A stretch of 64,000 bases of DNA from Rhynchobatus australiae (taxonomy: Eukaryota): NCBI GenBank assembly GCA_034780895.1, contig JAUZTB010000001.1:19358520-19422519 (forward strand), in the 5' to 3' direction. Within the stretch, counting starts at the first letter, position 1; the number at the start of each line of letters is the position of its first letter. Below are positions 4,730 through 58,430 of the stretch, in pieces. A program made the translations under genes and the position numbers. The notes under the pieces were generated by a model. It was given only the letters and a program-made list of their open reading frames with translations. It had not been told where the DNA came from and made no database searches.

Positions 4730-5941
4730 CTTCCCCTCTTCAGTATTTTGTTGACAAGAACTGTGTACTTCATCTTCTCTCACCAGTTTACCAGGCCAGG
4801 AAGGAAATCCTTTTATTTGACTCCAGACCAAGTCACCAACATTAAACGTCCTTGGTCTGTAGTGTATTAATTCGTTAGATGGTGAATCTGGAATCCTCAA
4901 ATCATCATCACTGCTTATGCTTTTAGTGTCTGACGGACTTGGAGCACATCCATTAATGTTTTCTGAATTATAATCTCCATTGTAAATATACTCATGTGCC
5001 AAAGAGCCTGGCATTCCCTCCAAACTAGCTGAAGAACTTGGAGATTGCTCCTCTATGGCAAGTTCTTGTTTGGGAGCTGTCAGCAGCTCAAAGTTCCTGT
5101 TCTGCTGAGACCGGTTTCCATTGATATGTGTGCATCTTTCCACAGTGCTCTCTAGTTTTTCTTTAATGTTAACAATGTGTCTTTTTTGACTATTAAACCT
5201 AAAACTGTCCTCGTGAAATCTTTTGTCCAGCTGGCAGTTTTTCTGCTGTAATCCTGCATCAGTCTGATCTCCCTGAAAGGAAGGCATCCTTTCGGCTGAA
5301 GGACTATGATTTACTTGGCCAGAGTGTTCTAGAAACTTCTCACATTTCCACAACGTTGCATCAACTGGCTGTTGTTCAGTTTCCCATTGCTTTTTAGGAG
5401 TGTTGCGACCTGGCGATTTGAAGTATTCAAATCCTTCCCCCTCAGCAGGGAATTTTGCCTGCTCAGAATTTTTGCGCAACCTCACTCCTCTGGCATGCCT
5501 ATTTGCCAGGATATTTTGATTGTTGAGTCGACTGTCGTTCTCCATGCTGGAAAGTCTTTTCCCATGAATCACTGCATTGACTGCATTGGAAAGATTCACA
5601 GGGTTTGCAATGGAGGCAGTAAAGGCACTCATGGCACTCAGGGCCGGGATGGGGCTCATTTGTGAAGTACTACTCACTGCTGTGGTGATCACAACTTGCA
5701 TTCCTTTGCTTGCAGCATCCACCACGGCTTTGTATATAGCATCAACAGAAGGGTCGTGAGGACCCACAGTCGGTGCCTGTTCTCTGTCTTGCTTTGCTTG
5801 AATCTGTTCTATTCGATGTTGGTCGCCGGGTAGCTCATGAAAAGTGGGAGGTGCAGTATGGGAGGCCTCGGGGAGTAATATTGTTCCTGGTTCAGAGTTT
5901 ACAGGTGCATTTGGAAGCGAGACATCATGGACTGGGCTCAC
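4730..5941 (-). CDS. MBD5: MBD5 coding exon 7 including the N-terminal part of the PWWP domain
   Basis: TCTTCCCAG|GTG acceptor; [25 protein letters not shown] and [26 protein letters not shown] (PWWP variant); donor AAG|GTAAAT. 1212 nt, phase 0 to 0. Confidence 0.96.
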
Positions 5942-6319
5942 CTGGGAAGAAATTTAAATCAACTGCAGCATTAGATATTTCTAATGTATAATTTGTCTGT
6001 ATATGCATTAAGTAAATTTTTTAAACTACTTAAAACTAAACTTTAATATGAACAATTCATAAAAATGTTCTGAGAAATTCTTTCAAAATAGTTAATAGAA
6101 GCATAGAAAATATACAGGCCCTTCGGCCCACAAAGCTGTGCCGAATAGTTAAGACATCCATTTGAACCAGTTTTGTTTTTAATAAATTATTGTTTTTCTT
6201 CAACTGCTCCCGTTGATCCAGGAGATTATTACTGCTTTCCTTTTAAAAAAAAATTACAGAAATGGTATTCAAATTGCTACTCCATTACAGAATTAAGACA
6301 CATTTCATCAGTACTTAAA

Positions 6320-7140
6320 AAAATGAAATTGCTAGAAAAACTCAGAGGGTGAAGCAGCATCTGTGGAGGCAAAGGGACAGTCAACATTTCATGCTCAGTC
6401 CCTGTATCAGGGCTGAGAATGCAGAGGGAAGACAGCAGTATGTAGAAGTGAGGGGAATGCTGAGGACAGCATAGGCAGGTAGGTGGTGGTGGAAATTCAT
6501 GGAGCAAAAAAATATCTTAGGTAATGTAACTGAGTAGGGGAAGAGAAGAGGGAAGGAGAAAGTCATTGGCTGGTTGATGATAGGTGGAACCGGACAAGGA
6601 AGGAATGATGGGCATAGGGAACCAGGTGGGGGAGGGATGGAAAAGGTGAACAAAGGGNNNNNNNNNNNNNNNNNNNNNNNNNNNNNNNNNNNNNNNNNNN
6701 NNNNNNNNNNNNNNNNNNNNNNNNNNNNNNNNNNNNNNNNNNNNNNNNNNNNNNNNNGAAAAGGTGAACAAAGGGAGGGAGATCCTGGGTGGACTGATGG
6801 GAGTGGGTTACCTGAAACTGGAAAATTCAGTGTTCATACCATTGGCATGAACATTAAATTTTCCAATTTCAGTAACCCACTCCCTCCAATCTAACCAGGG
6901 TTTCTCTCCCTTTTGCACATTTTCCACACCATTGTAATACCCCTCATTACCAAGAGTTTTCACACTCTCCCACCTGTTTCAGTCTGCCCATCACCCACAT
7001 ACCTATCTACCTGGGTTTCCTCTTCCTTGGTTTACCTTTCTTAACTCCTCACCTGGTTCCACCTGCCCATCATCCCTTCCTTATCTGGTTCCACCTATCA
7101 TCAACCAGCCTTTGTGTCTACCCTTCCCTCTCCCACCAAC
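6320..7140. mobile_element. Penelope-like element remnants arranged as an inverted pair centred near 6842
   Basis: Both arms carry the GMNI.FSNF-type GIY-YIG C-terminal coding and purine/pyrimidine-skewed tails in opposite orientation. Confidence 0.65.
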
Positions 7141-7984
7141 GCCTCAAGTTACAATGGCTCTGCTTGTTGCCGATCAAGCCTAGGTACTTCAAATTCACAT
7201 AAAAACATCCCACACTGGTTACATTTACTCATCCAATGCAGAGAGGGAAGGCAACATTTCAATGTACCAATTGAAAAACTGAATCTAAAGCAAAATCCCT
7301 GGAACATTAACACTCCATAATCATGAATTCAGAGCACAGATCTTCCGAGTATAAGGAAAGTGAATTTGCATTATTTTGGGACTCAATGAACCAACTCTGA
7401 GGTGAAATTGACATTTTCAGATATTGACTGGAAAGCTCAGCAAGGTATTCATGCATTAAATCTTTTCTTTAAAGAATGATAATGCTCACACCCTTACAAG
7501 TAATAATGGGATATGGAGTTAGAGAAATGCAACATAAGTAACTGAGGCACACCCTGAATGAAGAACCTTAAATCAATAAAAATGAGAAACAGTATTTATC
7601 CAAGGGGCAGAGCCTTTTATTTCTTACTAGTAATCAGTAATAAAACACTAGTATTAATATTACTACTGAAAGTAATATGCTGCCAACTAGGTGTAGCTTA
7701 TTAAAAATATCAAGTTTCAGCTACAGAACCACCTGCAAATGAACTAAAAATTATGCAAGAATCTACCGTTGTCAGGGGTAATGCAAATATCCTTCAATGT
7801 TACGAGGCAAAGTATGCTTGTACATACAGAACCTTATTGCGCATATTTTGGATTGTTATTAGATTTGAGGAGTGTGGGTGAGGGGGATGTCACATCTTAA
7901 AAACGTGACCCCAGGTAACCACCTCTGAAGACATTGCTTGTCTTCAGTTTAGTAATTTAGTAATAAATGAAAATCTAAAAACTG

Positions 7985-8200
7985 CAATTGCGGGGAATTT
8001 GAAATAAAGACAAAATGCTGGGAAAACTAGAATCTCACTCTGACCTCTGTCTGTGGCCTCCTGCATTGTTACAACGAGGCCAGGCACAAGCTTCAGGAAC
8101 ATCACATCATTTTTCCTCAGGGCACATTGCAGCCTGTAAGACTCAATACTGAATTCTCCAACTTCAGATAACTTGCACACTTTCTGGTTGCATCAGGCTA
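7985..8200 (+). mobile_element. Penelope-like 3' fragment
   Basis: Degenerate HKLQEHHIIF..GTLQP..LNTEFSNFR coding, typical of the end of the Penelope GIY-YIG ORF. Confidence 0.6.
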
Positions 8201-27990: not shown

Positions 27991-28948
27991 CTGTATGCAT
28001 TCTTTATAGAATCCTGAACAACCTTAGTTTATTAAGTTTATGCTAACCTTAAGAAGAAAACATACTAGGACTGCATTTTGGCAGTCTATGAAAATCATTC
28101 TTCAAGCTTCCGCCTCCATATTATTATACAGCACCTGGAGAAAGATGTCAGACAGCAGTATATCACATCTTAATGTATGTCATGCCACACAGCTCACTGC
28201 AAAAATAATCCTACATTTGATGAAGGAGGTGATGTTTGTGTCTGAACTTTTAAATTTTGACTTCGAGTGAGAGTCGTCCACATTACATTTCAAATAAGAT
28301 ACGAGGTACCCTTAGTTGACACAAACAAACCACTGGGTTGTGTCTGCCAAAACTCAGCTCTGATTACCACTATATCATTTTGGTTCAGCCATCAACTCCT
28401 AGTATATATTGATGGATACAATAAATAATCCAGAATTTTTAGCAAATGTTGTCACCTCTGTGCTTTTGTCTGCTCCCGTGGTTTCATTGGGTCACAAAAA
28501 CTGCATCAGATATGTTCTTCACTGAGATTCAGTCACCATTTTGAACATTTATGTAAAGGTAAGATGCAAATACTTGCAGAGAAAAATCCTTTCATATTCC
28601 TCAAAAGACAGGTTTTTAATGTCATTCTATTCCAATTTAAATCTAGGCCCTGGATATGAAATGAAGATGCATGATGGTATCAAAATATGTTCAAGAAATT
28701 AACAAAAAATGAAAATTTCAATTCGAATGCAAAAGCTTCTTAAGAGGTATTGATGATGATACATGCAGCAAGCACATTTTCAACAAGTTAGCTTCAGCAA
28801 GATTTCCACATTTAGAATTTTCAATATTGCTTGTTCTATATGGAGTACATTTTACTTTGTTTAAACTTTGTGCTGTCTTGAATTATTTATTTGGTTTGTG
28901 TGATGGGGAAAGGAAAATGGGCCCAATTCCTACAGCACACAAGCATAC

Positions 28949-29020
28949 CTCCTGAAAGGTTGACCAAGGAACAACGTTGTCGTCTGTGAAGATGTCCATG
29001 GGATGGACCATCCTGCCCTC
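28949..29020 (-). CDS. Candidate 72-nt in-frame alternative (cassette) exon of MBD5
   Basis: Pyrimidine-rich AG-free tract, then CAG|GAG...GAG|GTATGC. 72 nt, open in the phase-1 frame of this intron (GGQDGPSHGHLHRRQRCSLVNLSG). No transcript evidence. Confidence 0.5.
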
Positions 29021-30274
29021 CTGCCAGAGGATAGCATTGATGAGGGCAAGAAAATTGAGGAAAATGTTGTTACAAGATAAAATTAACATACACGTAGCAA
29101 AAGTCAGTAATTATATACAAAGAGAATCTCCCACCCCCCCACCTGATTCTCTACATTTCTTGTCATGCAGATATAATTCAATTAAGCAAACACTAAGTAT
29201 AGATTAAGTGTACATTGTTCTCCCCATTTTGATCAGCTTTGTTCTGACTGCTTTGAGCTGAAAATCTATGCGAAGACAGATTTGTCATTTTACTTGATGT
29301 TCCATTGTGCAGAGAAATATAGCCAGTCTGCCTAACACATTCCTCTAACAGTTTGGCTTATTTGAGACAAATGCTGTCATAAAGGTTGTACAACAATACA
29401 GCAAAGTTCTTGATACATAGTCATCCTTCCTAGAATGCACGAAGCCAAATCTGTTAACAATTCAAACTTGTTTCATAAAGCCTGGGAAATATTCAGCTTT
29501 TGTACAAAATACTAGCATTTGATTCCCCCCCCCCCCCCCCAAAATGGTAGAAAACATGTAAAAATTGCAATTCTTTTCAGTGTGCAATATATTAGTCATG
29601 GACCAAAATTAACCAACAAGATAATAATTATCGCTTTTTTAAAAATGGAAGATACTTTGCTAAATATGACTCTAGCTTCAAATGACGTGTGAATAAAAAT
29701 GGATAAATTAAATTTTAAATTAAAAGGATACTTTCGATCAATAGCTCAATTGAAATACATGCTTGCTTTCAATTTCCTCTCCTACTCAAAAATTCACATT
29801 AGCAAAGGGGAAATGATCTTCATGAGGCTTCAAACACATTAAAACTTAGCAAATATTAGCTAAGTTTTTATTCACTGTACACCAAGCATATAGTCACACA
29901 AATGAAAACCGAACGTGCATGATTAAAATAAAATAAATGAATCAATTAAAGAATCAGCCACATTAGAGCTCTGCACTTGTAATCTTGAAGAAAAACATTT
30001 AAAATCATATAGAAATTACTTCCTGCTCAAGCCATTTGGTTATACGTATTTGTCAGTGAGAAGATGCCATACTACAATAAGGTATCTGTAAACTTCTTGT
30101 AATTTACATAATAGCACTTGACAAATATTCAAAGAACCTTATGATATAGAAAACATAACAATCCTTGAGCCAAAAATGAAACTGACGACAAATTATGTAC
30201 CCAGACTTGAAACTTGTGACAAAATTTGAAAATATCAAATAAAAAAAATTCAATGGATTAGTGTAAAACCATAC

Positions 30275-32368
30275 CTGCATCAGCACTGGTTTGGCTACAA
30301 ATGCCACTACTGTTTGGTACCATTACTGTTGAAGAGGCTGCAATTCTTGAATGATGGTTGGAATGCAAACTATTTCCCAAAGTCATTCCAGATTGATGAA
30401 GCAGCCCACAATTGCCACCATCATGGGGCTGTCCGACTAACCCAACAAATTGATTGTTTAGGCCCTGACAACTGTGGATTAAATTACTATTTGTATTCTG
30501 GCAAGAAATACTTTCCCCTCTTGTTAAATTTTGAGCTGATAGGTTATGAATGGAACCTGAGTTCAGACTGGTATTTGAAAAGTTATGTTGGTTGGATGAA
30601 CAAGAAATACCTGTAGTGGAACCACCACAACTAGCACTGCTATTGCCACTGATTTGAGAACTCTGTGAACTCATAGACTGAAGTAACTGAGACATGGTGT
30701 TATTCATAGTCACAGATGAATTCTGTCCTTGTTTCCTTAACGAGTCAATCACAGACTTTGGAACTCCTGAGCTGCTCATCTGAGACTGTTTCAGCATACT
30801 CAATACTGTAGGGGTAGCTTGCTTCCGCTTTCTTAAAGGGTCCTTTTGCTGTGCCATTAATTTGTCTCTCAGTGCTGCACGCCCACTTTGACCTTCATTA
30901 ACTGAAAGCAGCATGTTTGTAGTTGGTGGAAACATGGAATTTAAAGTGCTGTGTCCTTCACTATTGCCACCACTGCCAACTCCACCAGTACTGTTACTAC
31001 CAGACAGTTTGTTTTGATTAGCTAGCTGTGCTTTGGCTGCTGCTGAAAGTAAACTGCTTGCTGGAAATGAGGCAGCATTATGCTGGTTCAAAATTTGATT
31101 TAAGGGCATACCTAGCAAACCTGGCTGACCCTTTTGTTGTACATTTCCAACAGATACAGATGGAAACAAAGGGTTATTTTGAGGATTCAAAACATTGTTC
31201 ATTCCAACCAACAGTGGATTAGAAACATCTTTGTATTGATGAAGTAGTCCATCAGGCTTGGTAGATGGACTGGATGGCATAGATGGTCTTGGAGAACCCA
31301 TGGATGACCTTGGCGACCTTGGAGGGACTTTTATTCCACTGCAGCTTGACTGAGGACCTGCAGGTGGCATCATTAAGCTTCCATGATCAGAGGATGTGGA
31401 TGATGACCGCGACCTTTGTGGTGATGCCTCAATTCTTCCCATTACAGGTCCAATCATATGTACTGGAGAGGTAACTGGAGCAGGAGACACAGATGTGGAA
31501 GTTGAATGTTGAACCCGTGGTACATGAGTTCCATGATTTACTGGGCCAGGCTTAACTGTTGGCAATGGTAGATTGCTTGGCAGAGGGACAACAGCAGGAG
31601 GCATGTTTACATTCATCATAGGTACCTGAGAGTGCATGGTTGTCTGGAAATTAGATGTATTAATAAGTACTGGATTAGGTTTACTTGGTATAGGGTCAAG
31701 GATACCTAATGGATCTTTTTCTGAGGGCAATGGCTTTTTCTGGAGAGCACATGATGTTGGGGGTCCTGGAGGAGGTTTGTGAAACATAATTCGNNNNNNN
31801 NNNNNNNNNNNNNNNNNNNNNNNNNNNNNNNNNNNNNNNNNNNGACTTTTTGTAGTCATTGTTGGTGAAAGAGGTATAGAAGTCCTACCAGCCATAGCAC
31901 AGGATGAGTGGGATGAAGAATTCTGTATCAGAACTGTGGGAGGGGAATGGGGAATTCTATTTACGTGAATAGGACTCGAGTTTGGCCCAGCATGAAAGCC
32001 TGGATTACTTCTTGTAAACACATCAGGACTTCCCATTGTATCAGTCCTGGGAGATATGGAACCATCTCCATAGATCTGTGATCCTGATGATGCTGGGCTA
32101 GACAGACCACCATGACTTCCACGATATGGAGACTTTTGCCCTTGATCATTGCTACCTAGTCTTTGTCTAGAATAACCATGAAGTTCTTGCTGGGGACTTC
32201 CACACAGGTCCTGTTGATAAAGCCGTGCTGCAGCATTTGGACCCCCCATCAATTTAGGCAGAAATGTATTCTTGTAGTCTGGCACTGCAGAATTTGTTAC
32301 TACTTCTTGTGACTTATTCCTCATTGCTCTAGGAGTTGCAGCCCGTGATTGTACCAATGGAGTTCCAC
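30275..32368 (-). CDS. MBD5: MBD5 large Pro/Ser-rich coding exon 4
   Basis: TTATTAG|GT acceptor and GCAG|GTATGG donor; 2094 nt, phase 1 to 1. Motifs [51 protein letters not shown]. The internal 50-N gap (31794-31843) keeps frame. Confidence 0.97.
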
Positions 32369-34320: not shown

Positions 34321-34861
34321 CCAACAAATAACAGCAATACTGTAGTTTCATGGTTTCCAGAATTTTTCCATTTTAAAGGTACTTATTTATCTGAATTTAA
34401 ATTCCCCAGGTTCAGAGATGGGACTTAAACTTGTCTCTCTATATCAATGGTCCAGGTTTCTACTTGCTCATCCAGTAACTATTACACTGTGCTATTGTCC
34501 CCTAATTATCATTCTCTCCAATTTTTCTGTAATACCAGTGGTCATGTGTTTTAATAAAGCCTCCTTTAACCAGGCCACGAGACAAAGCAGTATTAGATAG
34601 TCTCATCTACCCAGCTGCCAATGACACCGAATATTGCAATACCAGTTGCTTTTTTTCATTCACTCCATTAGCTATTAACTTTGTATGAGAGTCAATTAAA
34701 AGTATGTTGTCAACATGGCAGTTTATAGTTTCTCCTGTGCTTCAAGGAAATCAGAAGAATACCTTGTTGCTAGTAATTAAAAAACCACNNNNNNNNNNCT
34801 GCAAACCACAATCCACATGGAGCCCTAACCAGATTGAATATTTTAGTTTCTGAAAACTTAC

Positions 34862-35042
34862 TTGTTCCACCACCTGGGCTTGTGAGAAGCAAGGAAGGAT
34901 GTGGTGTCTCAATACTTTTATGTAGTGTAGCTACAGCAATGATTTTGCGCTTGTGGATGCAAAGTTTTGTCAAATCTTCATCAGCTTTGACATCCTCTGC
35001 TGTTCTTTGCTTGACGGTTGCTCCAGGATCAAAAGTGAACAC
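34862..35042 (-). CDS. MBD5: MBD5 coding exon 3 (end of MBD domain)
   Basis: AAG|GTG acceptor, [43 protein letters not shown]...TSPGGGT, donor A|GTAAGT. 181 nt, phase 0 to 1. Confidence 0.96.
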
Positions 35043-38000
35043 CTTAAATCAAGACAACACTTCTGTTACTGCTTCAATGTTACAACATTAACTCTGGATG
35101 TAGTGATATTCTCAGGGAAAAGTAAATTCACTTTGGGGACCAGCAATTTATACAAATATATTATGCAACCACTCAGCACATCTTCCTCCACTCTGCTGCA
35201 AAGGTGCAAGATGAGACTGCTAATTTTTAAATATTCCATCAAACAACATCTCAGAAGTTGTTAACAACATTACTGATAAAACAAAAAAACTTTAACCCAA
35301 CAGTTGACAACTTTGATATGTTTGCCTAAGGGAATTTAATTTCTGTATTTTATATAATGGAACAGGAAATTCTGGAAATGGTTAGATTAGGCAAAATCTA
35401 TGGAGAGAGAAACACAGATGCTCCACCTGTTCCCTTTCCTATTAAAATTCAGTTCGGGTTCATGGCAACAACTCAAGTTGCCTCTTCTTGGTGCGTATTA
35501 ACCAAAGTGGAACTGTAAAACAGGATGCCGATCAATTGCTCCAAAAAAAAAGACAAGATCAAAGGGAACAAGACTTTGTTTGCAATGCAATTTTGTATAT
35601 GATTAAAAATATAAAAGATGACATTTTTGTATTATGCAACCTAATATGGTTTCCTTATCTGTTCAATTTCCATGTAAATTACAAAAAAGTATAAAAATTG
35701 GTACTTTGTTTTGTATATGTACAGTACAAATACATCAAAGTGTTTTTTGTTATTCCACCAGTTGTGCTTGGTGAAAGCGTTTCTTAAATAACTTCTTGGT
35801 AATAATTTCAAGAAGAACACTGTTTATGAAATAGACATCATGAGTAAATTAAATTCAGTATTTCTACTGGTAACTGTTAGCTTTAAAAAAGCCTTAGGAT
35901 ATAGATAACACCAGAAAAGCTACATTTATTGAACATCTCTATTTCTTCTAATAAGCTAGTAACAGGGTGCTTTCTGGAACTGCTGCATCCCTGGGTCTTA
36001 GGAAGATGGCTCCCCAGGATTTAAAGCAAGGCTATTAACACTAGGTGAAAACATCTCAAATATTAATAGTTACAGATTAAAAGAATGTGCATTGATATAG
36101 CACCTTCACTTTATTAAAGCACTTCATGGTGAATGAACCGAATCCCTGCTATAATGAAGAAAAATAAACTTGCCAATTTCTACCTATCAGAATGACTAAG
36201 TAATGAGGTGAATAATCAGCTTTTTCTTTAAGAAAAAGTAATGTTGCTTGTTCTTCCTTGAAAAGTGCAATCGAATTTTTAATGAAACTGATTGACATTT
36301 GGACTACCATGTACAAAAATACATTTTTCACATACCATCAAAATATAATTCAAAACACAATGATTTCTTACCTAAAAAGGACAGAGGAAAAGAGCTTGGA
36401 AAGAAAGAGGAATCCACAAGGCAGTTAGAATTTTAGTCTGGCTGTCTCAATTCCAACCAGTAATCCTTAGATTTACAAGTTAACATTTGATGAATCACTG
36501 AGCAAATTCACTTAGCTATGAGGAAATGGACCATCTTGTTCAGGGTAACCACGTATATCTATTCATTGAAGTTTCTCTCCGGAACCTCAAACTGAGAAGG
36601 CCCTTTTAAATCCTCCAAACAGGAAGTGTCCTTTGGATCACTTCTCTCTGCACTGGGTAGCACTAAAAGTCTCAGCTTCAAATAATCGCTTGCCTTCATC
36701 GGCCAAGGTCTCTCCATAATTAACTTTTCTTTCCATAGTATATCAACAGCATTTTGGTCAGTCTTATTTCAAATTTTCATTTACTTCCTATAGCCAAGGC
36801 GTCCCATGTTTTAAATTTGAGATCCACCACTGACTTTCTTGCCCAGGCACTTAAATATTTACAGACTTCATCTTTCACATTCATCTCTGACTCCCACTAT
36901 ATTCACCTCAATAAAACATTATACATCACTATTTCATCACCATTGCTCTTTTATTAATTTGAAAAGCTTTGTGGCACACTTTATTATTTATCCTTGCCTT
37001 TCACTGTTAAGTTTCTCAATTCTTCAAAAAGCCACATGTTCAACCCAGCTTCAGAATTTTGATTTTGTGCTTCTAAATCTGTGCTGTACCTGATGTGACC
37101 TCTTATCTTAACCACACATTTAATGCAGTCTACTGGAGTCCATGCAGTCACACTATTATGATGCTTAATAATATGTAATATTTGTATTTTGTATGATAAG
37201 TAGTTTTTATTTTTCTGTTATAGTTCATTATATAGGAATGCATTCAAATAGTTATTAAAAATGAGATATATTCCAATTGTCTTCTTAGACTTTGAAGGAT
37301 AAACAATGACCTCCTTACGTCAATTTTTCCATAGACAACTGATGCAATTGTATCTAATTTCATACATCCTGAGGATCTTAAATACTTTCCACAGGATCCT
37401 TGTTAGCACCATTTCAAAGCTTCATTGACAGAAGATCCCAAAGCTGTGATGTTTGCCATATAGAAGAAGTAAAAGGGGGAGTATTTTGGACCACCATCTG
37501 TATATTCTCCACAGCATACTGACTTGGCAATATGTCACTGTTCCTTCATCATTGTTGAATCAAAATTATCTAACAGCAAGTCTCAGTGCCGTCACCATAC
37601 TGGCTGCAATGGTTCAAGATGAATGCCTGCTACCATACTAAAGGGCAAACAGATAATAAATGCTGTATTTGCCCATGAAGTCCACATTAAAAATATAAAT
37701 TACAGATACATTAAAGCCACAAGTAATTTTTTGTTTTAGAGTTTGTCCCTAACTGGGCACCACTATTAACAGGTCACTCAAGTATTTTGAGGTATGGCAA
37801 CATAATGGTTCTTACAGCACTGGTATCCAATGACCTAAGGACCTGAATTCAAACTCCATCATGGCAGCTGGTGAATTTAAATTTAGGCAATTAAAATAGA
37901 TCTGGAATTTTAAAAAGCTAGTATCGATAGTAATGACCTGTTTAATGCATNNNNNNNNNNNNNNNNNNNNNNNNNNNNNNNNNNNNNNNNNNNNNNNNNN

Positions 38001-38050
38001 NNNNNNNNNNNNNNNNNNNNNNNNNNNNNNNNNNNNNNNNNNNNNNNNNN

Positions 38051-38060
38051 GCCACTTGGA
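38051..38060 (-). CDS. MBD5: MBD5 coding exon 2 (MBD core); only the first 10 nt visible, rest in gap 37951-38050
   Basis: Acceptor TTTTCTTTTTTTAG|TCCAAGTGGC completes AG|T=Ser then Pro-Ser-Gly, the SPSG motif expected after GVLY. Phase matches exon 1. Confidence 0.85.
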
Positions 38061-38659
38061 CTAAAAAAAGAAAAAACAAAGACTTTGTAAATAAACAAGT
38101 TATGACTTTAAGAACTTGATGCTAATCTATTTTAACAACATGGACTTGATGGCCTAAATGGCCCACTTATAAACTGCTTGGAGTTATGAACGTGAGACAG
38201 AGAAGTTTACAGAGCCAAATGTAGATTATAATGTTTAAGGTCTTCTTGGCCAGGGCAATTCAAAAGCAATGAGGAACTAGATCGGGATAGGATAAAATGC
38301 ATGTGGAATATAGCATGGGATTGGACATATCTTGGAATTATACACCTATTTGAATTCCAAGGCACCAAAACCAGAGAATGTAAAGGGAAAGCAACCGAAA
38401 GTTCAAACAGGATTAAACAGCGTACATCACTTGAAAGAGAATTGCATAGAATATGGAATCCTAAAATATACCAGATTTTTAATGACCTATAAATATATGA
38501 ACTACATTCCCTCTGTGCTTTCAGATCAAGCAAGTTGGCAGTGCCAGTGTGATTTTATTTTAAACCAACCCCCCCCCACATTTTCTTTCATTTGGAATTT
38601 CCAGATGATTCTAGTTCTGTTTTTTTTTTACTTGTCTGTACATTGTTAAATGCCTTCCA

Positions 38660-39100
38660 GTTGGAAAATGCTAGCATCTAAAATAGGCTAGACTGATACC
38701 CAAAATGGGTGGGTAGCCTTATGAGGAAAGGCTAGGTTTGCATCTGCAGTTTAGATGAGTGAGAGGGGGCTCAACTGCGACATAAAGGAACCTGAGAAGT
38801 TTTGATAGGGAGAGGATATTTCCTATTGTGAGAGAATCTAGAACTAGAGGTCACTGTTTACAAATGAAGGATCTCCCTTTTAAGGCAGAGGCGAGGTGAA
38901 TTTTATGTTCTATCAGCAGATTGCAACGAATAGTGGAAGCAGACAATGAATATTTATGGCAGGTGTCGGTAGATTCTTGGCATAAGGGGGTGAAAGGTTA
39001 TCAAGGGTAAATGAGAATATGTAGTGAAGATTGTAGTTAGATCAGCCATTATTTTATTAAATAGAGCAGCAGACTTGGTGCCGAGTGGCCTTTTCCCCAT
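38660..39100 (+). mobile_element. CR1 3' fragment
   Basis: TTATGAGGAAAGGCTAGG, GAGAATCTAGAACTAGAGGTCACTG and a 3' tail with GAGTGGCCT. Confidence 0.65.
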
Positions 39101-41210
39101 TCACTTCATCATTGATATGGTATTGGCATCATACCAAACCAAACTCTTGAATGTACATTAGATCAATGACTTACTGCTGCTAATGTAACCTCATGTCAGT
39201 TGGTGGCTTATCAACTTCAGGCCACAAAATCAATGATTATTTGTGAAGCAGAAGCCACCATCACTAATGCCACAATTTGGATTTACGAAGCACCTTTGAA
39301 GGATAAATTACCCGAGTTACTTCAGATGTTTTCATCAAGTTTATGAATTTGAGTTTAAATCAAACATGGAAATTCACAGTGGTCGAGAACAAAATAATTT
39401 AATTGAAGAATGTGCTTGTTTTCAAACAAATGTCATTTTGTCAGCTAGCTTGTTAGTAATATTGCCTTTTCAACCAGATACTACATGCTTGAGGTCCTTA
39501 CGGTACAAGTCTTGAGAAAATGTTGTAATGTTGATGGTGCCACTTTTCATTTGCATTGTAAATGATATTCCATCTGTACAGGTAGCCAAAGATCCTATAG
39601 TATTGTTCAAAGAGTAGGGGCTGGTAGGGGAGGTGGAGTTCCTTGTGGCTTCTGACAAATATGAATCCATTCCTCAAGCAGCACCACAAAAGTTTAAATG
39701 GTCTACTACTAATGGAATATTTTTGCCAAGATGTCAATGGTATCTGCACTTCAAAATAATTAACTGGCTTGGCAGCACTTTGGGTTAAAGAAATAAAAAG
39801 TACTATAATTGCATGTTGTTTCTTTTCTAAAGATGACAGCAGAGAGAATTGAAAACCAGTTAACCAAAGTATCTTGCTTCAGAGTTTGATACATATTGAT
39901 AACTATTTGAATATTAGTTGAGAATGCAGTATATGTTCACTAAATTACTGAAATGGGAAAAAAAAAAGTGGTTTTTGCATATTCCTCATCTGTAATGAGC
40001 ACAGCTTGGTGATCCAACAACGCTTTCCAAAGTTTAATTGGTAAGAAATCTGCTATACTGCTATCATATTAACCTTAGAAGCAATTTATGGTGTTTGACA
40101 ATCAACAGAATTTTAGTTTAACAAAAGATAGTTTCCATTGTACTCTAAAAATGGCCATAATTAATGAATGCACTCATCCCTGTATTACTACAAAAAGTAA
40201 ATTTTAACATTAAAAATCAATGACAGTTAAATTATTGTTGCATTCATTACACCCACTGATCTGGGAAAGTGTTATCCATCTGATTTCAAAATTTTCAGCT
40301 GCATTTTATTTTCTCATATTTGTTTGCTGGTATAGAAGTAGTTTCATCATGGTTAATGCTCACAAACTGGATATTAATGAGGTTAATTTTAAAACTAGAC
40401 AATTTAATTTTACAACCAAGAAACACTTCCCTCTAATGTTAAAGTCAGATGGCAAGTTTAGTATCAGCCTTGGCTCAATACTAACACTTGAAAATTCAAG
40501 CGTCAAGCTCTATAGCAGGGCCCAAGCATGCAGTTTAGGTTGATACCTGAGTGTAATGCTGATGGATGTGGAATTTGCTGCCTATTGCTTTTTTGGTGAC
40601 ACTAATGCCTCAGTTAGCACTTTAGACATCAGCTTGCCCAAACAGATGTACCACTGTACACTACAGCGTAATTCAGCCATAAATCAACCTACTTTATTCA
40701 TTGACAATTTCCTTGCTTCTGTTAATGGTTGGGAAAAAGAATTAGGGGGAGATTGGGATAAGGCGGCAGAGGTTAACTTGGAAGCCCACCACAGCACAGG
40801 GATGCAGAGAGGCTTTATTCTTCCTCCAATCATTTTAAATAAATTATTTGCACAGGGTTGTTTGCCAAAAAAAAGCCTTTGACAGCCAGAAGCCAGTTCC
40901 CAGTCAGTGTTTAGTAATCAGATAGACAGACTTTAAGGTAAGGAGTGAGAAATTTAGNNNNNNNNNNNNNNNNNNNNNNNNNNNNNNNNNNNNNNNNNNN
41001 NNNNNNNNNNNNNNNNNNNNNNNNNNNNNNNNNNNNNNNNNNNNNNNNNNCTTTTTAGAAATGTTTAGATGAGTAAACAAAACACCACAGCATAGAAGGC
41101 TATGTGCCGAGTGCTGGAAAATGGATTAGTGTAGACAGGGAGTTAACTGCCAGCACTGACAGAGGTCTGAATGCCCTGTTATCACGCTATAAAACATTGT
41201 AGCTCTAATT

Positions 41211-41415
41211 GAGGGTGGCATGGTAGCTTAGCGGTTAGCATGATGCTATTATAGCAATTGGGGTTCAATTCCCATTGCTGTAAGAAGTTTGTACATTCTC
41301 TGTCTCCATGGGTTTCCTCCCGCATTCTAAAGATGCACAGGTAGGTTAACATGGGTTTAAAATGGGAGGTATGGACTCATTGGGCCAGAAAAGCCTGTCA
41401 CAGTGCTGTATAAAT
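41211..41415 (+). mobile_element. tRNA-derived SINE
   Basis: A-box-like TGGTAGCTTAGCGGTTAG, B box GGTTCAATTCC, CR1-like tail GGGCCAGAAAAGCCTG...GTGCTGTAT. Confidence 0.75.
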
Positions 41416-41768
41416 AGGTTTTTAAAAACGGTGATGGAAAATGTACTTCTCTTATTTGATTTTCTTTTGTTCATATTAGTCAAAGCATTCTGTGCTGTCA
41501 AAGAGACAGGACAATCCACAGGTCTTTTGAAAATTTGGGTGAAGAAATCATGATGCAAGTTGCTCAATGTCAAAAAAATGTCCTGTACCACAGTTAGATC
41601 AAAATTACAAGAGGTAAAGCATATTAAGCATATGATTTGCATTTAAAACATATATGTACAAAAAAAAANNNNNNNNNNNNNNNNNNNNNNNNNNNNNNNN
41701 NNNNNNNNNNNNNNNNNNNNNNNNNNNNNNNNNNNNNNNNNNNNNNNNNNNNNNNNNNNNNNNNNNNN

Positions 41769-41983
41769 CCCCCCACTTCTCCAACTCCCAGCACATCACT
41801 CTTGTACTTCCTGACGAACTCCTGCATGCTCTTCACTTCACTCTCTGACAAAGCCTGACACTGAAAGGGGTCCTGGTCATAGACAGGCAGCTGCCTCATT
41901 AGTTGCCTACGGCGATAATAGGCCCCTTCAGTGCCAGCAATTGGCTGCATTTCCTTTGGAATGAAATCCATATAATGAATAGC
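41769..41983 (-). CDS. LMCD1: Isolated LMCD1 (dyxin)-like PET-domain exon fragment inside an MBD5 intron, truncated by an assembly gap
   Basis: (CT)n tract plus CATTAG|GCT acceptor; [70 protein letters not shown]. Closer to recalled LMCD1 ([36 protein letters not shown]) than to testin or prickle. Confidence 0.85.
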
Positions 41984-42704
41984 CTAATGAGGGGAGAGAG
42001 AGAGAGAGAAAAGGACCTCTGTGATCTGTAACAACAAACATATGGATTTAATTCCCCTTAAATTACAGCCAGAATTTAACTACATCATGCATGAGTATAA
42101 AACAGCTATTTTCATTCACCTCCAGCTCTTCAAGTTTTATAAATATTTTTTAATTGTGATATTTTACTATAAATGGTCATAAATTATTGCCAGTGGTAGT
42201 GCTTGCATATTACTCATTCTGACGTATTAGTGGAATTCTACAAATATTGTGTTGTTTGGAACAGTTTGTGCTGATTACATTGTTCACTCCCATTAAATGA
42301 GAAATCACTTTCTCTTAAAGCATTCTGAGTTCTTGAGCCATATTTTCAATGTAAATCCGTGCTGATTATACTTGTGTAAGTGTCCTGCCGAAAATAATGT
42401 TATGTTATAACATATCAGTTACAAATAAAATATTTTATAAGACAATTCTTATCATTTTAGCCAGACAGTTCTTTGGCTCTAAGAGAATCATCAGACATAG
42501 AACACATTGGCTGCCCAAGATTTCACAGACTCAGAGAAGAGTAAATGGACATGATTTTACCAATATATTATCAGGAAATATCGTTATTGGCTGCTGTCCA
42601 GGCATGTTAAAAGGATAAATAACACTGCAGCAGAATTCCCAATCCCACATTGACACATGGACTTGCCTGGGAAAGAGGAAAGAGATCAATTGGCAGGTTG
42701 AGTA

Positions 42705-43610
42705 ATGTTGCAACAACAACCTCAAAGATGCGTGCTTAGTCTACTGCTCTATTTTCTCTACACTCACGACTGTGTGGCCAGACACAGTTCAAACGTTACC
42801 AATAAATTCACCGATGACACTAATGTCATTGGCAGAATTTCAGATAGCGATAAAACGGCATACAGGAGTGAGATAGATCGGCTGGTTGAATGGAGTCACA
42901 ACAACGTCTTAGTCAGTGTCAGCAAGACAAAGGAATTGATTGTGGACTTCAGGAAGGGGAAGACAGAAGAACACATACCAGTCTTCACTGAGGGGTCAGC
43001 AATGGAAAGGGTGAGCAGCTTCAAGTTCCTGGGTATCAACATCTCAGAGGATCTACCCTGGGCCCAACACATTGATGCAATCATGAAGGCGGCACACCAG
43101 TGGCTCTACTTCATCGGGAGTCTGAGGAGATTTGGTGTGTCACCAAAGACTCTTGCAAATTTCTACAGGTGTGCAGTGGAGAGCATTCTGGCTTGTTACA
43201 TCACCATCTGGTATGAAGGCTCCAATGCGCAGGATTGGAGGCTACAGAGATTCAGCCAGGTCCATCACGGGCACAACCCTCCCCACCATCGAAGACATCT
43301 TCAAGAGGCAGTGCCTCAAGGAGGCAGCATCCATTATTAAGGACCCTCACCACCACCTGGAACATGCCCTGTTAACATTACTACTATTGGGGAGGTGGTA
43401 CAGGAGCCTGAAGACCACACTCAATGATTCAGGAACAGCTTCTTCCCCTCCACCATCAGATTTCGGAACAGTCCATGAACACTACCTCATTATTCCTCTT
43501 TTGCACTATTTATTGCTGCAGCTTATAGTAATTTTTATGTGTTTATGTCTTGCTGCCACAAAACAACAAATTTCATGACATATGTCAGTGATAATAAACC
43601 TGACTCTGAA
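42705..43610 (+). mobile_element. Rex/Babar-like LINE, 5'-truncated RT and 3' UTR
   Basis: PQRCVLSLLLYFLYTHDC, KFTDDT, SKTKELIVDFRK, SFKFLGINISEDL; ends GATAATAAACCTGACTCTGA. Confidence 0.9.
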
Positions 43611-45628
43611 TGCTTGTCAGTTCTTCTGGCAAACACCCAAACCTTCAAAACTTCCACATTTTTGAATATATCTGTACAAATGCAAATTAAAATCTGTAAA
43701 ATTCAATTCACATCTCGTTGCAGTTTGTTCACATGATCGATACAACTCTTTAATATATTAAAATCCATATAGCTCTTTAAAGGACTTTGTCATTATTCTG
43801 AAAAATTCTCAGGATCAGATATGCTTTCAGAGAATTATAGCTGCACTGTTGGAACTGGACCATCATACTGGAATAGTCACTTTGCACAACCATTACAACT
43901 CTCTAATCATTTGTAACTAATGCTACTGAGCAAAGAAAAGACCTTCTTGCAAATAATGAAACCAGCTTACTTTAGACCTGGCACAAATATAAAACAAAAT
44001 CTCTTAAACATCATTTTTGGGAGCTGTGTATATTCTGTTGGCAGCATGATATAATAGAACCATCTTAAAAAGTTTCACAGTTACATATATAACCACCAGC
44101 AAAGCACATCCCAGGTTTATTATTGCATGGACCTAGGTGCAGGTTTTATGCATGCACGTGAATGCTTCAAAAACAGAGACAAATCTGGATCATTGAACAC
44201 CAACGCTTAGGTCATGATAATTTTGTTCAACTGTTTTTCCATTCTGAAAACCATTCATCTGCACACTTTGGAACATTGTGAGATGAGGATTGTGTTGTTT
44301 TTGGTTAAGTTTGGGCTGCATAATCTATGCTGAAGCTGAATTGGAATGGTTCAGTCCTTTGAATTTGAGTTTTACATTGGTTAGGAAATGATCTTTAAAG
44401 CTGGTTTACAAGCAATGAAATCCACATGGTAAATTATAAATCGATCGCAAATTAATTGGTTGAAATTTAGGCATAACATTGTTAATCGAGATCTGAAATT
44501 TTTTAAATTACTATCAAAATCTTGAAACCCAACATCAACCTGCTAAATTAACTATAAATCTGGAAAATTTTACTCAGTGTCTGCCTGCCTATGTTATTAA
44601 GCTGTGGGTAACATCAACCGTGTCCTATCTGAGTGCAACATTGACACATGCCCACTTTTCAGCAGGGGTTAACACAGTTCCTTCTGTTTTTGGCACAGGA
44701 CAGATGTGATGTCACTGATACTTCAGAGATTTATTACTGCAGCACAGTCTGGAACATTGAAGCCAAGACTTACAAATTTACTAAGAAATATTAAAACTGG
44801 AGCAATGCTTGGATGTTCTTAATCAGCCACTGACTACATGCATCATTCTAATCTTTCAAAGTTACAGTTACACAAGATACATTCAATACAAAATCTGTAT
44901 CTGTCAATTTTTGCTGTGAAATTCACTTTAGTCATCACTCTTGACCAAACATGTGCTGATGTATCACTTCAAATAGATTGGCCATAGCTTTACTGTCAAT
45001 GAATCTGTTTATGAAATAGACTGTTGACCAAGTAACATTACAGAAAACTCCAACACTACTTTTAAACTGGATCCACTTGCGCAATTCAAATGAGAAACCT
45101 GGAAGAACATAGCTTGTCTAATTTTTCCACATTATTCAAGAACAAACACAGTGTTTTCCTTATGTCTCACTAATATCTTTCAAGTCTGTGCATTCCACAT
45201 TAATTACAGACTAAATCTGAGGCCTTCCTCTATTGAATAGTTAACTGCTAAATTCCAAGATTCATTTACAACAGAACATTTTGGTAAGTTTTCCTTAAAA
45301 AGTTTTGAAAAACAAAATACTTTATTTCAATTACCTAAAAAAAATTATTTGCATTGAAAGTGAATATACTATTGACCTCTAAATAGGTCACAGAGTAATG
45401 AACAATAGCAAGACAATATTGGAAGTCAGTCAGTTTCAATTGTGGAGGCACTGAAAACAAAAATCAGTGAAAGATTCAATGCCATATATAAGCAAATAGA
45501 AAGCCATTATTTGAATGTTTTAAATTCACTCTGTATTTGACCCAGAACCAAAGTTTGAAAGTCAAACTCTCCTCCACCCACTGTTTCCCGAGCTTAGCAC
45601 ATTAAAATAAATGCAGAACAACATATAC

Positions 45629-45738
45629 CTCATGTACAGCACTCCATTCTGATCAACTTGCCGCTGCCATCCTATTGGAACTTGGACTGCTGATCCCCCG
45701 CCATCTTTTTCACCATCATTTTCGTTTCCTCCATTCAT
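45629..45738 (-). CDS. MBD5: MBD5 first coding exon (start codon, N-terminal part of MBD domain)
   Basis: ATG at 45738 gives [36 protein letters not shown], matching the vertebrate MBD5 N-terminus (MNGG...[17 protein letters not shown]). 110 nt ending AG|GTATAT, phase 2. Confidence 0.95.
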
Positions 45739-55688: not shown

Positions 55689-57092
55689 TAGTGGCATGCC
55701 AAAGTTTGGGCACCCCGGTCAAAATTTCTGATACTGTGAATAGCTAAGCAAGTAAAAGATGACCTGATTTCCAAAAGGCATGAAGTTAAAGATGACACAT
55801 TTAATATTTTAAGATTACTTTTTTATTCCCATCTTTTACAGTTTCAAAATAACAAAAGGAAAAGGCCCCGAAGCAAAAGTTTGAGCACCCTGCATGGTCA
55901 GTACTAAGTAACACCCAAGTGTGTGGGTGTTACTAAGTACACCCAAGATACTTTGGCAAGTATCACAGCTTGTAAGTGCTTTCTGTCGCCAGCTAAGAGT
56001 CTTTCAATTCTTGTTTGGAGGATTTTCACCCATTCTTCCTTGCAAAAGGCTTCTAGCTCTGAGAGATTCTTGGGCTCTCTTGCATGCACTGCTCTTTTGA
56101 GGACTATCCACAGACTTTCAATGATGTTTAGATCGGGGGACTGTGAGTGCCATGGCAAAACCTTCAGCTTGTGCCTCTTGAGGTAGTCCATAGTGGATTT
56201 TGAGGTGTGTTTAGCATCGTTATCCTGTTGTAGAAGCCATCCTCTTTTTACCTTCAGCTTTTTTTTAAGCAGATGGTGCGATATTTGCTTCCAGAATTTG
56301 CTGGTATTTAATTAAATTCAATCTTCCCTCCACTAGTGAAATTTTCCCCATGCCACTGGCTGNNNNNNNNNNNNNNNNNNNNNNNNNNNNNNNNNNNNNN
56401 NNNNNNNNNNNNNNNNNNNNNNNNNNNNNNNNNNNNNNNNNNNNNNNNNNNNNNNNNNNNNNNNNNNNNNNNNNNNNNNNNNNNNNNNNNNNNNNNNNNN
56501 NNNNNNNNNNNNNNNNNNNNNNNNNNNNNNNNNNNNNNNNNNNNNNNNNNNNNNNNNNNNNNNNNNNNNNNNNNNNNNNNNNNNNNNNNNNNNNNNNNNN
56601 NNNNNNNNNNNNNNNNNNNNNNNNNNNNNNNNNNNNNNNNNNNNNNNNNNNNNNNNNNNNNNNNNNNNNNNNNNNNNNNNNNNNNNNNNNNNNNNNNNNN
56701 NNNNNNNNNNNNNNNNNNNNNNNNNNNNNNNNNNNNNNNNNNNNNNNNNNNNNNNNNNNNNNNNNNNNNNNNNNNNNNNNNNNNNNNNNNNNNNNNNNNN
56801 NNNNNNNNNNNNNNNNNNNNNNNNNNNNNNNNNNNNNNNNNNNNNNNNNNNNNNNNNNNNNNNNNNNNNNNNNNNNNNNNNNNNNNNNNNNNNNNNNNNN
56901 NNNNNNNNNNNNNNNNNNNNNNNNNNNNNNNNNNNNNNNNNNNNNNNNNNNNNNNNNNNNNNNNNNNNNNNNNNNNNNNNNNNNNNNNNNNNNNNNNNNN
57001 NNNNNNNNNNNNNNNNNNNATCTTTTACTTGCTTAGCTATTCACAGTAACAGAAATTTTGACCAGGGGTGCCCAAACTTTTGCATGCCACTG
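55689..57092 (-). mobile_element. Tc1-family DNA transposon with IR/DR-type long TIRs; defective, centre in a gap
   Basis: TIRs (T/C)AGTGGCATGC.AAAGTTTGGGCACCCC.GGTCAAAATTTCTG at both ends, each flanked by TA. Inner direct repeat GCAAAAGTTTGAGCACCC near 55873. Transposase C-terminus WHSQSPDLNIIESLW..LK. Confidence 0.93.
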
Positions 57093-57175: not shown

Positions 57176-58430
57176 TAACAGAACATAGAACAGTACAGCA
57201 CAGAACACGCCAACAATGTTGTGCTAGCATAGCTAATCCCTTCTTCCTATAGAAATCCCATATCCCTCCATTTTCCTCTCATTCATGTGCCCATCCAAGG
57301 TCCTCTTTAAAGCCCCCAATGAATTTGCCTCCACCACCCTATCAGGCAATGCATTCCAGGCATCCACCACTTGGAGTAAAAAAAGTACCCTTCAAGTCTG
57401 TTGATCCTACCCCCTCTCACCTTAAATGCATACCCTCTGGTGTTGGAGTGCTCAATAATGGGAGAAAGATATTGCTTGTCCACCCTATGCTCCTCATAAT
57501 TTTATACACTTCCAACAGATCACCCTTCAGCCTCCACCGCCCCAGAGAAAAGAATCCTCTCTTGATAGCACATGCCCTCTAATCCAAGCAGCATCCTAGT
57601 AAATCTCCTCTGCACCCTCTCTAAAGCCTCAATATCCTTCCTGTAGTGTGACCAGAACTGTATGCAAAACTGTTAATGTGGCCTAACCAGAGTTCTATAG
57701 AAACATATCATAACTTTTTGACTCCTATTCTCAATACCTCGATTAATGAAAGCAAGCATTCCATAAACCTTCTTTACCACCCTATCTACCTGTGTAGTCA
57801 CTTTTATTGAGCCATGGATTTGCACCCCAAGGTCTCTCTGCTCTTCAACACTTAAGGTGTCTTGCCCTTTAGAGTGTACTGCCTCTTGACATTAGTTCCA
57901 CCAAGGTGCAACACCTCATTTATCTGGGTTAAACACCATCTGCCATTTCTCTGTCCACATCTGTAACTCATCTACGTCACGTTGTATCTGTTGCCAGTCT
58001 TCTACACTATTCACAACTCCACCAATCTTGGTATCAACTACAAACTTACTAACCCACCATTCAACATACTCATCCAGGTCATTTATGTGCATCACAAACA
58101 GCAGAGGTCCAGTACAGATCCCTGTGGAACACCACTACTCACAGGTCTCCAGCCTGAATAAGTCCCTTCAACCATCACCCTATCTTCTGTGGGCAAGCCA
58201 GTTTTGGATCCACACAACCAATTCTCCACTGACCCCATGNNNNNNNNNNNNNNNNNNNNNNNNNNNNNNNNNNNNNNNNNNNNNNNNNNNNNNNNNNNNN
58301 NNNNNNNNNNNNNNNNNNNNNNNNNNNNNNNNNNNNNNNACCCCATGCCTCCAAACTTTCTTGATTAACCAATGACATGTGACCTTGTCAAATGCCTTAC
58401 TGAAGCCCATATAGTTAACATTCACAGCTC
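57176..58430 (-). mobile_element. Second CR1 subfamily copy inserted in the host CR1
   Basis: Has its own 3' tail (AGAACATAGAACAGTACAGCACAG) and RT motifs FSKAFDKV, WIQNWL and SGVPQGSVL. Confidence 0.8.

Follow-up and report, generated by a model that had tools for sequence, protein, structure and literature searches.

The piece of DNA at 41773-42689 of the window (the whole stretch of 64,000 nucleotides that we analyzed) is almost certainly the 0.9-kb stretch absent from the middle of the only LMCD1 gene in the genome; it fits a gap of 948 Ns at the native locus, on another scaffold, and was most likely misjoined to an intron of MBD5. We are equally confident that the stray PET-domain exon it carries is an ordinary piece of an LMCD1 exon in the wrong place and not a real feature. 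The piece was single-copy, the native locus lacked exactly this piece, and contigs from other sequencing runs joined it to both edges of the gap in frame, which together argue for an assembly error.

On the minus strand, 41983-41769 formed an open reading frame of 71 codons that ran into a stretch of 100 Ns (41669-41768), which bounds the misplaced piece on the side away from the join. The frame matched the Pfam PET domain (E 5.6e-28), and a protein search returned 84 matches from 90 candidates, in which the top named proteins were shark and chimaera LMCD1 at 85-89%. Over its 71 residues the frame was 85-90% identical to vertebrate LMCD1, a protein with PET and LIM domains (P0002 of Heptranchias perlo, P0003 of Stegostoma tigrinum, P0004 of Callorhinchus milii), and the best match, P0001, was 90% identical. 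The preliminary description had reported an uninterrupted PET frame of about 71 codons on the MBD5 strand. The open frame and the domain stand, but LMCD1 accounts for only 70 codons plus one further base, corresponding to residues 124-193 of P0001. The last four letters, 41772-41769, all G on the minus strand, departed from the orthologue codons, and a contig from run X4 matched the window only from 41773. Runs of G at the ends of reads are a familiar artifact of two-colour sequencing, and these four letters at the contig end are likely to be a read-end artifact.

The exon begins in phase 0 after a pyrimidine tract and an AG acceptor at 41984-41985, which bears out the earlier reading of a genuine intronic acceptor. 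Upstream of it lies the 3' end of an LMCD1 intron (41984-42689, minus strand, 706 nt, single copy in assembly G000), and since intron and acceptor adjoin the exon the piece is not a processed pseudogene, a point on which the preliminary description agrees. We refer to 41773-41983 as the 5' part of the PET-coding fourth exon of LMCD1, a numbering that assumes a single short exon at the start, encoding residues 1-8. Only this 5' part is present, and it reaches the N stretch without a donor of its own. Searches with P0001 and P0002 (tblastn) found no other LMCD1 exon in the window, in agreement with the preliminary description.

The native LMCD1 locus was located by mapping P0001 to G000. Its exons lay in order on the minus strand of C107, with residues 9-38 at 40696733, 38-123 at 40685606, 208-248 at 40665242-40665120, 249-320 at 40654700 and 320-373 at 40651178, and residues 124-207 were absent from this locus. 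In their place stood a run of 948 Ns (G000:C107:40665245-40666192), which abuts the first base of the exon's 3' part and is where the stray 5' part belongs. The 3' part, the last 41 codons (residues 208-248), closes in a phase-0 donor at 40665119. The donor of the preceding exon and the acceptor of the following one are likewise phase 0, so that frame and splice phases of the piece fit those of its neighbors. The suggested check of whether the native locus lacks this exon thus turned up a gap at the expected place. The 39 exon letters needed for residues 194-207 were missing from the assembly altogether. In this species 959 letters would be needed against the 948 Ns present, a difference that suits a gap of estimated size better than one laid out letter by letter. 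There were 15 N stretches in the 70 kb around LMCD1 and 25 in the window.

Taken together, the piece and the exons on C107 cover residues 9-373 in order and in frame, as in the LMCD1 orthologues, and the gene differs from vertebrate LMCD1 only in its location in the assembly and in the 39 missing exon letters. The animal itself would splice the exon between the third and fifth exons of LMCD1 with all joints in phase 0, and its MBD5 would be without such an exon.

Copy number in G000 was assessed at the level of peptide, family and nucleotide, all counts being lower bounds, though the gap at the native locus accounts for a single copy. The peptide matched at least two places, itself and a paralogue on C42 (L002), and a PET family search gave at least 8 places without a further exon of the LMCD1 type among them. 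The 917 bases at 41773-42689 matched only themselves, and the stray piece is the only copy found of the first 70 codons of the LMCD1 fourth exon. The C42 paralogue, which we take to be testin-like, has an exon that starts at the same codon and in the same phase as the LMCD1 exon and ends in a phase-0 donor. However, it is complete at 108 codons, has its own neighboring exons in place, and is 57% identical to the stray peptide, as against 85-90% for elasmobranch LMCD1, to which the PET domain is closest. We also noted three further PET and LIM genes with a PET domain divided among several exons (G000:C107:28603509-28623712, C42:6479404-6485611 and C65:5476762-5483006; L005-L010, L018-L020, L024); these are presumably Prickle paralogues.

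We compared contigs from 5 of 24 sequencing runs, X1, X2, X3 and X4 with the window and X1, X2, X4 and X7 with the native gap; the organism labels of X2, X4 and X7 (B, D and E) differ from that of X1. A single X4 contig of 9,195 nt (depth 15.8) bridged the gap. Its letters 5020-6518 matched the native left flank, 6558-7467 matched window 41773-42686 (910 letters), and 7474-8001 matched the native right flank, and it diverged from the window past both ends of the match. The crossing amounted to 39 + 910 + 6 = 955 letters over the 948 Ns. The first 39 letters are just what residues 194-207 need, and frame and length are therefore kept as in the orthologue. Four exon differences were found among the 15 listed of the 28 between X4 and the window over the piece; all four fell at third positions in the LMCD1 frame, where three leave the residue unchanged and the fourth gives that of the orthologues, a pattern that hints at a working LMCD1 exon as judged from codon positions. 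Exon codon 43 (window 41855) encodes Q in the window and H in X4 and P0001-P0004.

Runs X2 and X7 each reached one edge of the gap. An X2 contig of 442 nt (depth 3.8) matched window 42689-42305 with its letters 58-442 (385 letters, no difference) and the native right flank with its letters 1-54, again without a difference. The loose end of this contig agreed with window 42663-42689 in 27 of 30 letters; beyond that the window enters a repeat and the contig does not. A loose end of X7 at the left native edge translated to QAASAKEEA, which are missing codons. The X4 record, and likewise the X2 record, appears to be one and the same contig in the window and native-locus comparisons, given equal length, depth and strand and complementary coordinates. 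The piece was thus contiguous with other LMCD1 exons through the X4 bridge, with X2 and X7 each supporting one edge, and what is seen here in contigs of relatives probably holds for this species as well.

Run X1 held 0.96 of sampled words, and its long contigs were without difference from the window; the assembly may have been built from it, and X1 is hence not independent. One X1 contig matched 42084-42689 and then carried 21 further letters that did not fit the window, a second began at 42687 and entered the repeat, and another stopped at the left edge of the native gap. Even this run therefore gives the join no support, and the 21 letters probably link its contig to the native right flank. 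Contigs of X3 gave almost no cover of 41769-42620.

The gene that hosts the piece is MBD5. The main blocks of its exons were 94-100% identical to P0087, the MBD5 protein of Mobula hypostoma, which places the animal among the rays or sharks, with the first coding exon at 45629-45738 (minus strand, ending in phase 2) and the exon for residues 70-131 at 34860-35045 (minus strand). Four queries run without a positive control failed to locate the second coding exon, which would encode residues 36-70 at the core of the methyl-binding domain, in either the window or G000: tblastn on the window, P0098, a 37-residue query (0 candidates) and a degenerate pattern (0 matches). This exon may lie within an N stretch of 35045-45629, and its failure to appear is another sign of patchy assembly here, not proof of absence. 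Elsewhere in the gene, a stretch of 50 Ns (31794-31843) interrupts the large MBD5 coding exon, and the match of residues 132-831 spans it at 95%. The segment at 28875-29021 (residues 831-882 of P0087) was 59% identical, against 95-98% for its neighbors, and could be an alignment edge or an alternative exon.

The preliminary description had left room for a duplicated or shuffled exon that might act as a poison exon of MBD5. Poison exons are stop-carrying cassette exons that trigger decay, and MBD5 is dose-sensitive in people. Were the placement true, the exon would be a borrowed poison exon in such a gene. In its strongest form this explanation holds that the exon and 0.7 kb of its intron were recently duplicated, that the copies collapsed in assembly, and that the duplicate truly lies in the first coding intron of MBD5, where it might tune MBD5 dose as an alternative exon that carries a stop. 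The window has no N anywhere between 41769 and 45738, so the piece is indeed unbroken up to the first coding exon of MBD5, as previously stated. The splicing arithmetic was also correct; joined from 45629 to 41983, the phase-2 end of the MBD5 exon would shift the frame, which would meet a stop 28 codons further along, at 41901. A collapsed copy would likewise leave a gap at the native locus. However, X1 depth on the piece was 5.2 and 6.3, compared with 4.4-8.4 on the native flanks and 6-10 in the MBD5 intron. Depth was not doubled and therefore no collapsed duplicate was apparent, and X1 showed no differences that would mark two copies.

Other observations told against the same explanation. 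The X1 contig departed from the window at 42689, and none of the 32 contig matches listed from four runs crossed 42689/42690 as in the window; the 169,762 matches beyond these were nearly all repeat copies. Neither sequence over the junction nor doubled depth was thus found among the contigs listed from the four runs, and where a complete second copy would be expected at the native locus there are Ns. The piece resembles a poison exon in having an intronic acceptor whose use would give an early stop, but it lacks a donor, which lies on C107 at 40665119, and at the N stretch it finishes with G letters that do not fit the orthologue. Its place in MBD5 was not supported, since the contigs of X2 and X4 put it in LMCD1 and not in the MBD5 intron. 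Our search of the literature, which was not exhaustive and saw sources only in part, found no report of an LMCD1 exon nested in MBD5. We therefore set aside the duplicated or poison exon, and regard a collapsed duplicate as very improbable.

A true rearrangement in this individual or lineage that carried the exon from LMCD1 to MBD5 and left LMCD1 broken would account for an exon that is absent at the assembled native locus and present in the window, and we consider it more improbable still. The native site is not a clean deletion but a run of Ns close to the needed length (948 present, 959 required), X2, which is identical to the window for 385 letters, has the native arrangement, and the exon frame is intact and 90% identical to that of the closest orthologue.

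We return to misassembly and to the join itself, which lies at 42687-42690. The LMCD1-side contigs of X1 and X2 cease to match at 42689 and the X1 contig on the repeat side begins at 42687, so that the two sides share three letters; a search for LINE copies in the DNA examined found no longer overlap. To the right lies the remnant of a high-copy non-LTR retroelement (42690-43610, plus strand; PF09004, E 5.3e-5) with a depth of up to 1e5-1e6. The depth jump and the contig ends place its start at about 42690, not at 42705 as first given. An X3 contig (43580-44467) and an X4 contig (43588-46000) attached the 3' end of the repeat to the MBD5 intron, and the repeat therefore belongs to the MBD5 side. 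The preliminary description had proposed a chimeric contig joined through the LINE at 42705-43610. The chimera holds, but the two sides meet end to end at 42687-42690, and blastn found no copy of this LINE in the native LMCD1 flank at the break. A misplaced piece formed through two copies of the same LINE would explain why a high-copy repeat starts right at the join, yet after 42689 X2 and X4 carry the unique right flank without a LINE match, which refutes this route insofar as the contigs of relatives represent this species and makes it about as improbable as the rearrangement. The preliminary description had taken a gap at the true LMCD1 locus and an unspanned junction as the marks of misassembly; the gap lies at the exon site, and the join is spanned by none of the contigs listed.

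A plausible course for the misassembly would be as follows. A short-read contig of LMCD1 would have broken inside the exon, at the site of the 39 missing letters and the four Gs, with its other end at 42689. That end would have been joined, with an overlap of a few letters and without Ns, to a contig starting in the LINE remnant that the MBD5 intron carries. A sized gap would then have been left in LMCD1 by the scaffolder. Simple repeats, and after them LTR elements and LINEs, are named as what chiefly breaks short-read assemblies in one study (10.1101/2019.12.19.882399). The contig ends beside the LINE remnant resemble the chimeric joins and gaps that short-read assemblies form at repeats. 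Unlike the usual breaks, the join described here bears no N and sits at the edge of a repeat, so the window alone hides it.

LMCD1 and MBD5 thus look like ordinary genes, and the stray exon has no biological consequence. Annotation is nevertheless at risk, since LMCD1 would be called broken and MBD5 would be called short of part of its methyl-binding domain. The assembly holds false joins without Ns, and foreign exons, broken genes and odd neighbors in it therefore need to be checked against the native locus and independent contigs.

Two smaller observations concern the assembly at large. At several stretches of 100 Ns the same few letters stood on both sides (window 6658-6757 and 58240-58339; L028 8666-8765; L032 1567-1666), which suggests overlapping contigs left unmerged. 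The window also contains an open frame at 55907-56311 on the minus strand, which we take to resemble the remnant of a Tc1-type transposase.
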